A stretch of 64,000 nucleotides of DNA from a virus: the IMG/VR virus record IMGVR_UViG_3300028535_000001; one strand, given 5' to 3'. Each line of letters opens with the position of its first letter. The stretch's first letter is position 1. Under the pieces are notes generated by a model. The model did not search any database and was not told the origin of the DNA. It worked only from the letters and a program-made list of their open reading frames with translations. Positions 46,527 to 52,843 of the stretch are shown here, one piece after another. The position numbers and the translations under genes are program-made.

Positions 46527-48161
46527 CTAAATTGTGTAGATAGATACCATATTAGATTTGCCTTTAACTTTAACCATATCTAATTTCTTCCAATCGTATT
46601 TTGATCTTAGCATTCTGTATGTATCATAACCTACAATTAATGTTGCGTCATAATTTTTACTTACACCTTCTAATCTACTTGCAAGATTAACGGCGTCACC
46701 TAAAACAGAATAATCAAAACGTTGATCTGATCCCATATTACCAACTACAGCAGGACCTGAATTTATTCCTATGCCGATGTTTATCTTAATATCTGGACCA
46801 AAACTATCACTGTCATTTAATTCTTTTAATTTGTTCATCATTTCACATGCCGAGTTAACTGCAAGTGATCTATGATTATGTTGTTGTATTGGAGCATTCC
46901 AAAATGCCATAATACAATCGCCCATGTACTTATCAATAGTACCACCATTTTTCATTATAATGTTTGTCATGGGTGTTAAAAATTTATTTATAACTTTTGT
47001 AAGACCTTGTGGATCAGATTGAAATTTTTCTGAAATAGGAGTAAATCCTCTTATGTCACAAAATAAAAAAGTCATATCTCTTGTATCACCACCTAATTTT
47101 AAAAGTTCAGGATTTTTCTGCAACTTCTTAACCATATCTGGTGCTAGGTAATGTTCAAATTGTTTTTTGATTTGTAATTTTAATCTATTCTCTCTTGCAA
47201 AGTTATTGTATATCAAGTGTGCCCATACTATACTTCCTATTACTGCGATTGATGACCAATCTGTAAGTATCATATGTTTTTGCCATAGATAACCACTTGT
47301 AAGTGCTAAATCAAAATAAAAACCGACTAAAATTGCGGCTGACCAAAATAAGTCAACTCTAGGTAAAACTATTAAAAAGAAACCTAATGTTAATAATAAA
47401 GCAATCCATTCTGCCATAGGTGCCCAATCAGGTCTTTTTATATACTCACCTGATAATAAAGTTTCTGTTGACAAGGCCGCTATTTCGTGTGTGTTCTTTA
47501 AACCATTAGGTGTAAGTACAAAAGTGGAACCATCAAATGTAGCACCTATGAATACTATCTTACCTTTCATAGATGACCAATCTTTATCTGTATAATCTAT
47601 TCTAGGTATTCTATGTCTGAAATCAATCCATATACTATCTTGGTCAGGTATTGGAAACTTGATTATGGATAAAATCTTTTCCGGCACGGAATTATCCAAG
47701 GATAAAATTCGTATAACAGAGTCAACGCCCACTTTCACTTCCACGTTAGCGATAGCGAGAGATTTCCTTTCAATACTCTTTAAGTTCTTAGCTGTACTTG
47801 TTTCAGTTAGAATAACTGGATACTTTGAGATCATCTTCAAAAACATTTCATCACCACCTAGCCTATCTTTGTGAACAAATACTACGTTCAAAAATACTAG
47901 AGCTGCACCATTTTTATATGCATTGATGATAGTACGACCTAATATGTCTCTCTTCCAAGGCCATTGACCTTGTTTCTTTAATGCTTCATTTGATATATCT
48001 AACAACACAAGACTTTTAGACTCATAGTTATCGCCAAGTGTTTGATATAGATCAAAGGTCTTTAGTTGGAGGGTTTGTAAAGGTACTGGATTATATAATT
48101 TTAATCCTAATAGTATTAATACACTTACTATTACTGCCCAAATGGAAGTAAATTTAGTCAT
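46527..48161 (-). CDS. CHASE2-domain class III adenylate cyclase
   Basis: N-terminal TM, GQWPW.R CHASE2 start, three TMs, FCDIRGFT, DKYMGD, GINSG, FDYS..GD.VN.ASRLE; Lys/Asp specificity pair suggests ATP. Confidence 0.92.
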   Translation of the reverse strand: MTKFTSIWAVIVSVLILLGLKLYNPVPLQTLQLKTFDLYQTLGDNYESKSLVLLDISNEALKKQGQWPWKRDILGRTIINAYKNGAALVFLNVVFVHKDRLGGDEMFLKMISKYPVILTETSTAKNLKSIERKSLAIANVEVKVGVDSVIRILSLDNSVPEKILSIIKFPIPDQDSIWIDFRHRIPRIDYTDKDWSSMKGKIVFIGATFDGSTFVLTPNGLKNTHEIAALSTETLLSGEYIKRPDWAPMAEWIALLLTLGFFLIVLPRVDLFWSAAILVGFYFDLALTSGYLWQKHMILTDWSSIAVIGSIVWAHLIYNNFARENRLKLQIKKQFEHYLAPDMVKKLQKNPELLKLGGDTRDMTFLFCDIRGFTPISEKFQSDPQGLTKVINKFLTPMTNIIMKNGGTIDKYMGDCIMAFWNAPIQQHNHRSLAVNSACEMMNKLKELNDSDSFGPDIKINIGIGINSGPAVVGNMGSDQRFDYSVLGDAVNLASRLEGVSKNYDATLIVGYDTYRMLRSKYDWKKLDMVKVKGKSNMVSIYTI

Positions 48162-48168
48162 ATCATAT

Positions 48169-50319
48169 TTAGTCCGTTTGAATGATTGTGATATTGTTTT
48201 GAGTAGAGCTGCTACCTACATCAAGGTGTTGTGCTTCAGTATCTTGTAAAATCTGTATGTCTGCCTCTTTACTAGTTTCAGTTTTTACATAAGCTCTATG
48301 ATTGTCGTTGTATCTATTTAATATTGTGTAATCACCAGACGTTGAGGCAGTTGCGTTAAAGTCGTTATCTAACGTTGATACTCTTCCTGTAGAAGTAATA
48401 CTTGTTGACACACCACCACTTGTTGTAGTTAAGGTTTGAGTTACATCTCCAGTACTATAATTTAAAACTTCACCACTAGCAGTTACTTGCGTTTCTGAAC
48501 CACTATTATCAACCCACTCCGTACCACAACTTGATTGAGCATTGTCCCAATAGTATCCATAATTTAAACAATCTTCTTTATCATAACTTGCTAATAACAA
48601 TTCTAATTCTGCGTCTATGTCATAGTTATCTTCAAAATCATACTCATCTTCCCAATTAGACTCATCATCTTCATTATTGTAATCGTAACCTGTATACCAC
48701 CAATCATACACGGCGTCCCAATATATGTCCCAATCTGCCCACTCCCAATCAGTTATGTAAGTCTTCTTTAAGTCTTTCATCTTCCAAGGTTTAGGTTGGT
48801 TATCACACATCTTATAGTTTGGCCACGATCCACACCAACCATATAATTTACCCCATATCTCTTTTGATTCTTTAGTCCAACTATCGTTAGTTACTTTTAA
48901 AGTCCAATCATCTTTGTACCAGTCATTTAAATAATCAACATAATCTTGGTTACACCAATAGTCTTCGTAACCATTGTACTCACAATAGTTTTGTACAGTT
49001 AATGTTGGAGGTCCACCTTGGTTTTTGTATTCTGCATTGTTATAGTAGTCATCATCTAAAGCAAAATCTTCCCAAGTATATCCTTCAACTGTAGTTGCTT
49101 CTGTTTCATCTTTTGTATCTTCAACAACATCTTGTTCATCTACATCAACATTCCAAGAAGTTAAACCATAGTCTTCTAATAGATCATTATACTTGTCCGA
49201 ATATTCGTCCCAATCTACAGCGTCCCAATCAATAGTATCCCAATCAATAGTATCCCAGGTACAATCTGAACAACCAATAGCGTCAAAGTATGCTTGATCC
49301 ATTTCTGCATACATTTTCTTTGCGTCATCCCAATCCATAGTTTGCTCACCTTCGGCATCCCAAACTGAAATCTGGTTGTCTTCATCTATATAACCCCAAT
49401 CTTTTAAATCATCTTCCCAAGAATCATAATAAGATGTATCAACTTCTTCTACTTCAACTAAAGTATTTTCTTCTGCTGATTTTGTTTCAATCATTGTATC
49501 TGCTTCACTAGAAGATAAATCTGTACCAACAATTGTATTACTATCTTCTACTATACTTGCTTCTTCATTAATTAAAGCCTCTTCCATTTCTTGTGCTTCT
49601 TGTTCGTCTTTAGACATTTCAGATTTTGAATCTATATCACCAAAATGTTTTGCTGTATCTTCTTTAATTTCATCTTCAAATTCATCTAACTCAATAATGT
49701 CTGACTTATTAGTCTCTATCTTTGGAGGAGTTGGTGTTAAGTCGTTTGATACAACTGTCACTGAATTGTAAGCGTTAGTTATTGTTTGAGAACCTGCGTC
49801 ATTGGAGACCGTTACCGACCCTACTGCACCATCACTATCTGGTAGTAAGGTAATTGTAACCTCACCACTAGTGTCAACTGTTCCTGAAAAGGCAGTACCT
49901 TGTACTGTAATTGAGGCAAATCCAGCATTGATGTTAACTTCACCACCTAAATTAGATACCTGTCCTGATTCATATGTAAATGTACCAACGTTAACTGATA
50001 TGTTCATTGCCAATTCAATTGGTACAACCGATGTATCAAAAGCAAACTCATCAATTATTAATTCTGTATTTGGTCCCATTGTAAATTTAGTATTATCAAG
50101 GTAATGAATAATCATACCACCATCTTCACCAGTTTGGAGGAAATCGTTCATCTGCAACTCATAACCCATTGCTGTATTTTGAGTTTCTCCTTCTCTTTCG
50201 TTCCAAGTAGTACCCATTTGGCCTATGACTTCGCCAACTTTAGGACTTGTTATTTGTGATGATGAAATACTAGTACAGAAAAGTACCAGAAAGGTAATAA
50301 AAAATAAAATTCTTTTCAT
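48169..50319 (-). CDS. Exported FecR-domain protein with long acidic W/D/Y-rich region and curlin-like C-terminus
   Basis: Signal peptide; D.LQTG, F.MGPNT.L.IDEF, V.GT.F FecR motifs; C-terminal IQILQD and NNITIIQTD. Confidence 0.75.
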   Translation of the reverse strand: MKRILFFITFLVLFCTSISSSQITSPKVGEVIGQMGTTWNEREGETQNTAMGYELQMNDFLQTGEDGGMIIHYLDNTKFTMGPNTELIIDEFAFDTSVVPIELAMNISVNVGTFTYESGQVSNLGGEVNINAGFASITVQGTAFSGTVDTSGEVTITLLPDSDGAVGSVTVSNDAGSQTITNAYNSVTVVSNDLTPTPPKIETNKSDIIELDEFEDEIKEDTAKHFGDIDSKSEMSKDEQEAQEMEEALINEEASIVEDSNTIVGTDLSSSEADTMIETKSAEENTLVEVEEVDTSYYDSWEDDLKDWGYIDEDNQISVWDAEGEQTMDWDDAKKMYAEMDQAYFDAIGCSDCTWDTIDWDTIDWDAVDWDEYSDKYNDLLEDYGLTSWNVDVDEQDVVEDTKDETEATTVEGYTWEDFALDDDYYNNAEYKNQGGPPTLTVQNYCEYNGYEDYWCNQDYVDYLNDWYKDDWTLKVTNDSWTKESKEIWGKLYGWCGSWPNYKMCDNQPKPWKMKDLKKTYITDWEWADWDIYWDAVYDWWYTGYDYNNEDDESNWEDEYDFEDNYDIDAELELLLASYDKEDCLNYGYYWDNAQSSCGTEWVDNSGSETQVTASGEVLNYSTGDVTQTLTTTSGGVSTSITSTGRVSTLDNDFNATASTSGDYTILNRYNDNHRAYVKTETSKEADIQILQDTEAQHLDVGSSSTQNNITIIQTD
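49208..49258 (-). repeat. 15-bp tandem repeat encoding WDTID/WDAVD
   Basis: TCCCAATCAATAGTA repeated; protein WDTIDWDTIDWDAVDWD. Confidence 0.75.
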
Positions 50320-50321
50320 TT

Positions 50322-52350: not shown

Positions 52351-52814
52351 TACGAATTGTCTTCCTTCGGCATAGTAAATGTTGTTACAGTGCCATCTGA
52401 TTCAGTTACAGTTACGCTTACAGTATCATTTGTTCCTGTAGTTGTTGTTGCCCAAGTTACCACTTCACCACCAACTGGTGATGTAAATGTACCAGAGTCT
52501 TGTTGTAGACCATCTGTACCAAAAACGTTATCTGTAAGTTGTTTTGCTAATGCTGTATAAAATCTTGCTTCAACATTTGCTTTGAATTTTGCAACAGCAG
52601 TTGCCTTTGCGTCAGCTATTAGTTTATCAGCTGCCGCTTTGTTAGCTGCTTTGATTGCGTCTTTTCTAGTCTTCTCTATGTTCTCTATCGTTAGATAGTG
52701 TGATGATTTTCCCACTCCACTAAATGATGGACTGTGAAATTTAAAACCTAATTCACTTGCATAGGTACTAGAACAGAACAATAATGTTATTAAAATGATT
52801 GATAATTTTTTCAT
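52350..52814 (-). CDS. csgF: Curli assembly component CsgF
   Basis: Signal peptide then SEL.FKF.SPSFSG, F...VE.R....LA.QL. Confidence 0.85.
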   Translation of the reverse strand: MKKLSIILITLLFCSSTYASELGFKFHSPSFSGVGKSSHYLTIENIEKTRKDAIKAANKAAADKLIADAKATAVAKFKANVEARFYTALAKQLTDNVFGTDGLQQDSGTFTSPVGGEVVTWATTTTGTNDTVSVTVTESDGTVTTFTMPKEDNS

Positions 52815-52835
52815 ATTCCCTCTATTTTACACCAA

Positions 52836-52843
52836 TATTTATA
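52836..52843 (-). promoter_or_regulatory. T4-type late promoter TATAAATA for the csg operon
   Basis: Exact TATAAATA about 21 nt upstream of the csgF ATG. Confidence 0.75.

Follow-up and report, generated by a model that had tools for sequence, protein, structure and literature searches.

A five-gene locus behind a predicted late promoter

A stretch of 64,000 nucleotides (nt) from the IMG/VR virus record IMGVR_UViG_3300028535_000001, referred to below as the window, was analysed for a gene group of the curli, or type VIII, secretion system (T8SS). Between positions 46,527 and 52,843 it carries five abutting or overlapping open reading frames (ORFs) on the minus strand, which encode CsgF, CsgG, a CsgA-like curlin subunit, a secreted FecR-domain protein and a membrane CHASE2 adenylate cyclase. 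Genes for a baseplate hub, a tail tube, a baseplate tail-tube cap, both ribonucleotide reductase subunits and a primase-like protein mark the window as T4-like myophage DNA; its G+C content is about 32% and almost every gene lies on one strand. The source is an uncultured marine T4-like myophage, kin of Pelagibacter phage HTVC008M and of the OM43 phage Melnitz. The features of the locus are the following, with protein lengths in amino acids (aa).

52836..52843 (-): late-promoter motif TATAAATA, T4-type, 21 nt 5' of the csgF ATG
52350..52814 (-): csgF, 154 aa, signal peptide; Pfam CsgF E 1.5e-8, phrog_35372 4e-32
51364..52350 (-): csgG, 328 aa, outer-membrane lipoprotein pore; Pfam CsgG 1e-50, NCBIfam CsgG 7.9e-52
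50322..51413 (-): CsgA-like curlin subunit, 363 aa, signal peptide; AlphaFold2 model, Curlin_rpt in homologues, weak NCBIfam CsgA match
48169..50328 (-): secreted FecR-domain protein, 719-aa ORF; weak Pfam FecR, phrog_37870 4.7e-24, 34% identity to HTVC008M gp017
46527..48161 (-): membrane CHASE2 class IIIb adenylate cyclase, 544 aa; Pfam CHASE2 2.7e-23, Guanylate_cyc 1.5e-22, catalytic residues align to CyaB 3r5g

From csgF to the cyclase gene, successive ORFs overlap by 1 nt, 50 nt and 7 nt and are then separated by a gap of 7 nt. The first-pass annotation of this DNA had described five contiguous genes behind an exact T4 late-promoter motif, a description borne out by the ORFs, their domains and the position of TATAAATA. 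The motif is not enriched in the window (13 copies, with 16.7 expected from shuffled sequences). The coding strand carries all 13 copies, and five stand 21 to 30 nt 5' of ORF starts. In 29 of 33 related loci, HTVC008M among them, the motif is retained 26 to 32 nt 5' of csgF between diverging flanks. The uniform strand, the five copies near ORF starts and the conservation of the csgF copy support its prediction as a T4-type late-promoter motif. A late-transcription coactivator is annotated in Melnitz. Directly 3' of the cyclase gene lies the gene of a DUF7201 coiled-coil protein (45936-46379, minus strand) with its own TATAAATA at 46401-46408, 21 nt 5' of the start codon, and the late operon therefore probably ends at the cyclase.

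CsgG and CsgF

CsgF matched its Pfam family with 35.3 bits (cut-off 25.8) over profile positions 5-132 of 132; its sequence gave no match to solved CsgF chains. Residues 8-256 of CsgG aligned with Escherichia coli CsgG chains (E 8e-48), and the protein has the lipobox LLVGC and an acidic/basic C-terminal tail of about 70 aa. Like the E. coli curli system (CsgBAC-DEFG), the window has CsgG, in a full-length alignment, and a CsgF of the Pfam family, whereas its module is phage-encoded, CsgE and CsgB were not recognised and the subunit itself does not reach the Curlin_rpt profile. The lack of a recognisable csgE, remarked on at first reading, extends to relatives, as PF10627 was not found in HTVC008M, Melnitz and three related contigs; CsgC and CsgD were not searched for. 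Judged by sequence and model, the components that define type VIII secretion would be represented by CsgG, CsgF and a CsgA-type subunit, with CsgB and CsgE not recognised. The probable host family of these phages has no T8SS (PMC9599517).

A pore of this kind may have another use. Buchholz et al. 2022 discussed a role of CsgGF in lysis timing from gene order and modelling (PMC9004378), in which the CsgG/CsgF pore would be repurposed as a gated or pinholin-like timer, regulated by the FecR-domain protein and the cyclase, with no fibre involved. The failure to find the periplasmic gate CsgE in the genomes and contigs just named fits this proposal, as do the absence of cell clumping and the late-promoter motif, which agrees with a late role. 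However, CsgG is an outer-membrane pore and would be unable to depolarise the inner membrane, and the secreted CsgA-like solenoid, which a pore alone does not need, is conserved at every locus. Moreover, the same five genes are present in bacterial chromosomes (see below), where timing lysis would be senseless. We consider a lysis timer quite improbable.

The 363-aa protein as a predicted CsgA-type subunit

The 'curlin-repeat' label first given to the 363-aa protein was not upheld by the protein itself, which lies under the Pfam threshold (Curlin_rpt, E 8.2), but it is supported by homologues 59-67% identical, which carry Pfam Curlin_rpt, and by the predicted fold. The AlphaFold2 model (pLDDT 71, pTM 0.74) consists of about 13 strand-turn-strand rungs in two blocks with a disordered linker, residues 187-210, between them. 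The protein also has an invariant C-terminal Cys pair. When the model was compared with the Protein Data Bank (PDB) by Foldseek, nothing was found at E <= 0.001, just weak generic beta-helices. An exhaustive VIA structural search gave CsgA of Pontibacter korlensis (8c50_A) as first match, with Z 25.6 over 282 residues and an rmsd of 9.0, followed by a runner-up at Z 18.8. Because 8c50_A tops this search well above the next match, the protein is predicted to be a CsgA-type solenoid, which agrees with the beta-solenoid fold expected of it. Pontibacter CsgA (PDB 8c50) is similar both in its strand-turn-strand solenoid and in length, and the size of the 363-aa protein is normal among long CsgA homologues.

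A secreted protein with a FecR-like domain

The 719-aa ORF probably starts at Met4, the start site of its relatives, and would then encode 716 aa, rather than the 717 aa first reported; the acidic character reported along with that size stood, with a net charge of -92 over residues 206-600. The protein comprises a cleavable-looking signal peptide, immediately followed by a FecR-like domain (residues ~26-205), a disordered acidic linker (206-294), a central region (~295-600) and a tail (601-719). In the window, the FecR domain remains under the Pfam cut-off of 24 (PF04773, E 0.002, 16-19 bits), whereas homologues 31-36% identical to it reach 31-39 bits and exceed that cut-off. The domain clearly falls in a large family, with 3,956 matches at E <= 0.001. 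Structural matches of the domain to anti-sigma and PupR domains were weak (Z 4.1-4.6) and obtained with a low-confidence model. No anti-sigma domain was found in the protein, nor, by hydropathy, any hydrophobic segment past residue 26; its gene is surrounded by the csg genes and the cyclase gene, with no extracytoplasmic function (ECF) sigma factor or TonB-dependent receptor alongside. The name FecR thus stands for the shared domain, as seen in relatives above the cut-off, and not for a FecR-type regulator: with neither an anti-sigma domain nor a transmembrane segment, the protein is, by its sequence, a secreted protein sharing that domain.

Residues ~295-600 contain 19% Asp, 8.7% Trp and 10.7% Tyr together with conserved Cys pairs, and the protein has conserved Cys, Trp and Tyr positions. 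AlphaFold2 folded the region confidently (pLDDT 75-91) as a mainly helical domain. A fold search with the domain returned nothing at Z >= 5 and a protein atlas search gave no usable match; the fold cannot be called new, because the 719-residue model is too large and too uneven. The tail is a Ser/Thr-rich beta region. A curlin-like nature of this tail was considered and rejected: profile-profile comparison of the last 124 residues with the curlin family gave a probability of 0.2%, leaving the motif-level likeness (DIQILQD...ITIIQTD) unsupported. The long form of about 715 aa is common in marine metagenomes and matches near-identical marine viral proteins.

Given the domain's name, a link to iron has been considered. 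An ungated CsgG channel would in that case take up nutrients or cofactors such as iron complexes, with FecR as an iron-related regulator, as suggested in PMC9599517 and PMC7029224; a gene for an amino-acid-binding lipoprotein 1.7 kb upstream could be taken in its favour. The lack of an anti-sigma or transmembrane part in the FecR-domain protein and of an adjoining ECF sigma factor or TonB-dependent receptor argues otherwise, and bacterial relatives of the protein have CHASE2 cyclases and Slam-like barrels as partners, rather than genes of iron transport. The conserved curlin subunit would also go unexplained. An uptake channel appears very improbable to us.

The CHASE2 cyclase

Residues 15-262 of the cyclase matched CHASE2 over profile positions 4-252 of 257. 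A hydropathy scan showed hydrophobic segments at residues 1-28 and 246-287, the second within a block of ~246-320, and because these flank the CHASE2 domain it was placed in the periplasm, giving a layout of a first transmembrane segment, periplasmic CHASE2, the hydrophobic block ~246-320 and a cytoplasmic catalytic domain. In the alignment with Pseudomonas aeruginosa CyaB (PDB 3r5g), the segments FCDIRGFT, IDKYMGDC, DYSVLGD and AVNLASRLE correspond, and the catalytic Asp/Asp, Lys, Ser(Thr), Asn and Arg all align. We take these positions to be the two metal-binding Asp, the adenine-specifying Lys and Thr/Ser, and the transition-state Asn and Arg. The catalytic motifs are therefore intact, as first reported, and the 544-aa protein retains the residues characteristic of active class IIIb adenylate cyclases; its activity is predicted. 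Naming CHASE2 as the sensor domain of the phage cyclase adds to the published accounts, as the domain goes unnamed in PMC7029224, PMC9004378 and PMC9599517.

PycC models of PADLOC also matched the catalytic core (best E 5.6e-28), which could suggest an enzyme of Pycsar-type defence or counter-defence instead of cyclic AMP (cAMP) signalling. These matches are, however, limited to the shared class III core, and better scores were obtained with solved adenylate cyclases (6e-34 and 1.6e-32). The Lys and Ser/Thr that specify the base are those of adenylate enzymes, the adjacent genes include no Pycsar effector, and the combination of a CHASE2 sensor and a FecR partner is typical of signalling. We give a Pycsar role hardly any credence.

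Contact between the two proteins was addressed by complex prediction with CHASE2 (residues 25-248) and the FecR domain (24-210), alignments supplied; the score was 0.00 in both runs, which had no controls, and counts as evidence neither way.

Class III cyclases were found in 3 of 61 Pelagibacteraceae genomes. Two of the matches, G067:C11:2599-3144 and G018:C1:11393-11917, lie in open frames of 583-596 aa, which is similar in size to the HTVC008M enzyme (611 aa). The class III cyclases of the SAR11 family may be phage-derived or contamination.

The locus in related phages

A curli operon of pelagimyophages was reported by Zaragoza-Solas et al. 2020 (PMC7029224), and in mSystems 2022 the set CsgF, CsgG, CsgA/B, FecR, second CsgA/B and adenylate cyclase was described for Pelagibacter podo- and myophages, with a histidine kinase added in the podophage version (PMC9599517). 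The same study found the T8SS gene set at all 65 GOV2.0 stations, with evidence of metatranscriptome expression, and reported that curli regions do not always hold FecR and the cyclase (PMC9599517). In the GenBank record of Melnitz, gp99-104 are annotated, in order, as CsgF, CsgG, curlin repeat, FecR domain, second curlin repeat and adenylate/guanylate cyclase. The coupling of curli genes with FecR and a cyclase is thus already known for SAR11 and OM43 phages from 2020-2022; the first-pass annotation had mentioned csgF/csgG clusters in SAR11 myophages, with no function assigned. In HTVC008M, gp014-gp019 are annotated as CsgF, CsgG, a CsgB-like protein, two hypothetical proteins and an adenylate/guanylyl cyclase; gp017 is the homologue of the FecR-domain protein, gp016 and gp018 are curlin-like and gp019 is the cyclase.

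The gene set and order of the window are those of the pelagiphage T8SS region (HTVC008M, Melnitz, uncultured myo- and podophages), likewise with no CsgE. Identities between the window and HTVC008M are 47% for CsgG, 34% for the FecR domain and 35% for the cyclase. The window lineage has one curlin gene of 363 aa, whereas HTVC008M and Melnitz have two. Its FecR-domain protein of ~715 aa has an extra Trp/Asp/Tyr/Cys-rich domain of ~300 aa compared with HTVC008M gp017 (368 aa). Its cyclase, which forms a long separate branch in the cyclase tree, has 544 aa and is shorter than those of HTVC008M (611 aa), Melnitz (683 aa) and the five-gene copies from bacteria and from contigs of metagenome-assembled genomes, MAGs (682-691 aa). 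Finally, the histidine kinase of the podophage regions has no counterpart in the window cluster.

A scan of IMG/VR with CsgG gave 32 loci of 63-100% identity, and every locus of sufficient length contained all five genes; the FecR and cyclase genes therefore co-occur with csgFG in all loci of that length, as a coupled module should. Two arrangements were seen. In the colinear one the genes lie as in the window; in the other, found in about half of the relatives, the cyclase is divergent and starts ~55-80 nt upstream of csgF. The initial reading of all five genes as one late operon consequently holds for the window and not for that half. In the cyclase tree, the colinear and the divergent forms each make up a subclade of eight rows, and the two are sisters; this indicates one inversion after which the cyclase was still adjacent. 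The 55-80 nt divergent intergenic region (loci L006, L008-L012, L015-L018, L021, L026 and L033 of our set) contains the near-palindrome TATTTATAATAAATA, which supplies csgF with an exact TATAAATA. Of 10 loci checked, five also have AATAAATA, matching at 7 of 8 positions, on the strand of the cyclase. TATTTATAATAAATA may be a bidirectional late promoter.

The FecR/CHASE2 pair and the whole module in bacteria

One genome per prokaryotic species was scanned with a consensus-like subset of the FecR-domain alignment, yielding 80 loci, in 58 of which (bacterial and MAG-contig) a FecR-like ORF was callable. Gene calling was crude, so that the counts are minima. A CHASE2 cyclase stood within 3 genes of the FecR ORF in 16 of the 58 loci, which made it the most frequent large neighbour (16 of the 78 scanned). 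Slam-like neighbours, proteins of ~450-500 aa that combine TPR repeats with a SlipAM-type outer-membrane barrel, were found in 18 loci and CsgG in nine; the two never occurred together (0/58), and each was accompanied by the cyclase in six loci. The FecR-domain protein and the CHASE2 cyclase are a recurrent bacterial gene pair, also where curli genes are missing. The trio of Slam-like barrel, FecR-domain protein and CHASE2 cyclase (L068, L074, L078, L089, L104 and L105; Omnitrophota, Alpha- and Deltaproteobacteria) has, as far as found, no description in the literature searched. Its FecR domains belong to the same subfamily (E down to 1e-20), its cyclases are of the same CHASE2 type and an outer-membrane translocon adjoins, but a Slam-type barrel replaces CsgG/CsgF and there is no curlin gene.

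Two described systems are comparable. The 'BiofilmReg' operon of Burkholderia encodes a LysM-FecR protein, a CHASE2 histidine kinase and a response regulator (PMC5192318). As in the window, a secreted FecR-domain protein stands beside a membrane sensor with CHASE2, in an operon that has been connected with the formation of biofilms; unlike the window, it has a kinase/response-regulator output, a LysM part on the FecR protein and no T8SS genes. In Sinorhizobium meliloti, a cluster holds clr, cyaD1, smc02177 (FecR domain) and smc02178 (PMC5498481), with SMc02177 beside cyaD1 (SMc02176), and the outer-membrane receptor NsrA signals to the CHASE2 cyclases CyaD1, CyaD2 and CyaK in response to an external protein signal (PMC13001267, PMC7529298). 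CHASE2 cyclases are here fed by an outer-membrane protein, although the partner is NsrA, not CsgG, and the CRP-type receptor Clr reads the cAMP. NsrA offers an experimental precedent for signalling from the outer membrane to CHASE2.

The whole module was also found in bacteria. A 397-kb Henriciella MAG contig carries csgF, csgG, a 504-aa curlin-like gene, a FecR-domain gene and a CHASE2 cyclase gene, in that order, flanked by FAA hydrolase, ALO-type oxidase and 2OG oxygenase genes. Two Caulobacteraceae contigs have the same order, with a metallophosphoesterase on one side and TetR, amidohydrolase and acyl-CoA dehydrogenase on the other. The G+C content of the bacterial modules is 50-53%, with flanks mostly at 53-55% (65% for the left flank of L044), whereas phage copies have 31-42%. 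Because all five genes, with host-like G+C, are present in these chromosomal contigs, FecR and the cyclase are not phage-only additions. These copies qualify the published statement that FecR and the cyclase lie outside bacterial T8SS operons. A sample of 401 alphaproteobacterial genomes searched with the Henriciella FecR protein gave no further close orthologue, so the bacterial five-gene form is rare in the genomes searched.

Three further binned contigs carry the five-gene module: L042 (Luteolibacter MAG), L045 (Bacteroidetes MAG) and L037 (Legionellales MAG). L042, with endolysin and nuclease genes, and L045, with PHROG families of unknown function, have flanks of phage type and low G+C and are probably phage contigs mis-binned into MAGs; the flanks of L037 were not part of this check. 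The context of the representative P0144 proved to be another phage-like contig.

In the tree, CsgG-linked cyclases form one clade, apart from the unlinked ones, with 100% branch support. The cyclases of the bacterial five-gene copies nest among phage-like contigs, a pattern compatible with transfer in either direction. We infer that the five-gene unit is cellular in kind (alphaproteobacterial-type) and is passed from genome to genome as a single block.

The T8SS genes and the FecR/cyclase pair might instead be two functionally independent cargo modules that were acquired together. The pair occurs with no CsgG in many bacteria, half of the relatives have the cyclase on the other strand, and published curli regions may lack FecR and the cyclase, as cited above. 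Their adjacency, on the other hand, outlived an inversion and extends across myophages, podophages (PMC9599517) and bacterial chromosomes; the CsgG-linked cyclases are monophyletic, and CsgG and Slam-like barrels substitute for each other beside the pair. Independent cargo is unlikely in our view, if not negligibly so.

Interpretation of the module

Taken as a whole, the locus reads as a phage copy of the pelagiphage T8SS region, with an exported CsgA-like fibre and a FecR/CHASE2 sensor pair, an account that we hold with moderate confidence. The gene set, the targeting signals, the CsgA-like fold, the cyclase motifs, the linkage and the conservation of the late-promoter motif are established by the analysis; secretion, fibre formation, contact between FecR and CHASE2 and a cAMP output are inferred from them. 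Late in infection, the phage would install a CsgG/CsgF pore in the outer membrane of the host, through which the CsgA-like solenoid subunit would be exported and, on infected cells, assemble into curli-type fibres. The secreted FecR-domain protein and the inner-membrane CHASE2 cyclase would make up a second, pre-existing bacterial sensor pair, acting as an envelope sensor coupled to the adjoining translocon (CsgG here, a Slam-like barrel elsewhere). This pair would most likely report the state of the envelope or of the extracellular space to the cytoplasm via changed cAMP synthesis. The alternatives considered above have less support, chiefly because relatives so constantly retain the curlin subunit and the adjacency. 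A trans-envelope model leading from fibre to cAMP is plausible and unproven.

Several observations weigh against this account. No CsgB-type nucleator is evident, the window lineage having a single curlin-like gene; this lack of CsgB and CsgE concerns the E. coli-type system only, because alphaproteobacterial-type operons are likewise without both (PMC9599517). No clumping was seen in Melnitz-infected cells by Buchholz et al. (PMC9004378), and for the phage copies fibres, secretion and cAMP are predictions from the genes. In the divergent arrangement, the cyclase lies outside the csgF operon. The SAR11-like host of the window phage is a presumption. In S. meliloti, SMc02177, the FecR-domain neighbour of cyaD1, was dispensable for signal perception (PMC5498481). 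Above all, neither the complete genomes of HTVC008M and Melnitz nor eight related contigs gave a match to cNMP_binding (PF00027), which was present in only 2 of the 61 Pelagibacteraceae genomes, in a search whose controls gave the expected matches. Any model of cAMP signalling has its main gap here, as no canonical cAMP receptor was found in the phages or in most of the presumed host family. The chain of signals that the first-pass annotation had proposed, from the fibre via FecR to cAMP, is conjectural, and the dispensable SMc02177 speaks against it.

A more specific version would make the module an outside-in, envelope-spanning sensor with an interchangeable translocon, CsgG/CsgF or Slam-like, that exports or holds a FecR-domain protein controlling the CHASE2 cyclase. 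The acidic Trp/Tyr/Cys-rich domain would bind a ligand or the fibre, and cAMP would act via a non-CRP receptor or outside the cell, in hosts otherwise without cAMP signalling. We think this version rather unlikely.

Other features of the window

Between csgF and a gene for an SNase-like nuclease (Pfam SNase 6.5e-16) lie two very small hydrophobic ORFs at 52900-53190 and 53485-53970, both on the minus strand, and more copies of TATAAATA at 53191 and 53505. The phage-borne gene for the periplasmic amino-acid-binding lipoprotein, 1.7 kb upstream of csgF, is at 54503-55546 on the minus strand; its product matched the NCBIfam lysine/arginine/ornithine ABC substrate-binding family (5e-46) under the curated cut-off, and no permease or ATPase gene is close to it. 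At 17652-17948 on the minus strand, Rfam matched a permuted transfer-messenger RNA (tmRNA) of alphaproteobacterial type (alpha_tmRNA 93.5 bits, tmRNA_permuted 82.7 bits), although ARAGORN reported no tmRNA on the window. An SsrA tmRNA is also encoded by Melnitz.

Implications

Compared with the published accounts, the increments are the identity of the CHASE2 domain, the general pairing of FecR-domain proteins and CHASE2 cyclases with Slam-like barrels or CsgG as alternatives, the bacterial five-gene copies and the finding of no cAMP receptor in the phages and most of the presumed host family. If the host is SAR11-like, the phage would supply a second-messenger enzyme to a cell with no obvious receptor for its product. 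The increments make the published puzzle more testable: the sensor half is a general bacterial FecR/CHASE2 pair docking beside different outer-membrane translocons, and Alphaproteobacteria of cultivable type with the whole module (Hyphomonadaceae, Caulobacteraceae) are possible genetic models. SAR11 and OM43 rank with the most abundant bacteria of the sea. Should infection indeed bring curli-type fibres and cAMP to such cells, it would affect how cells aggregate and particles form in the surface ocean, and perhaps how genes are exchanged there.

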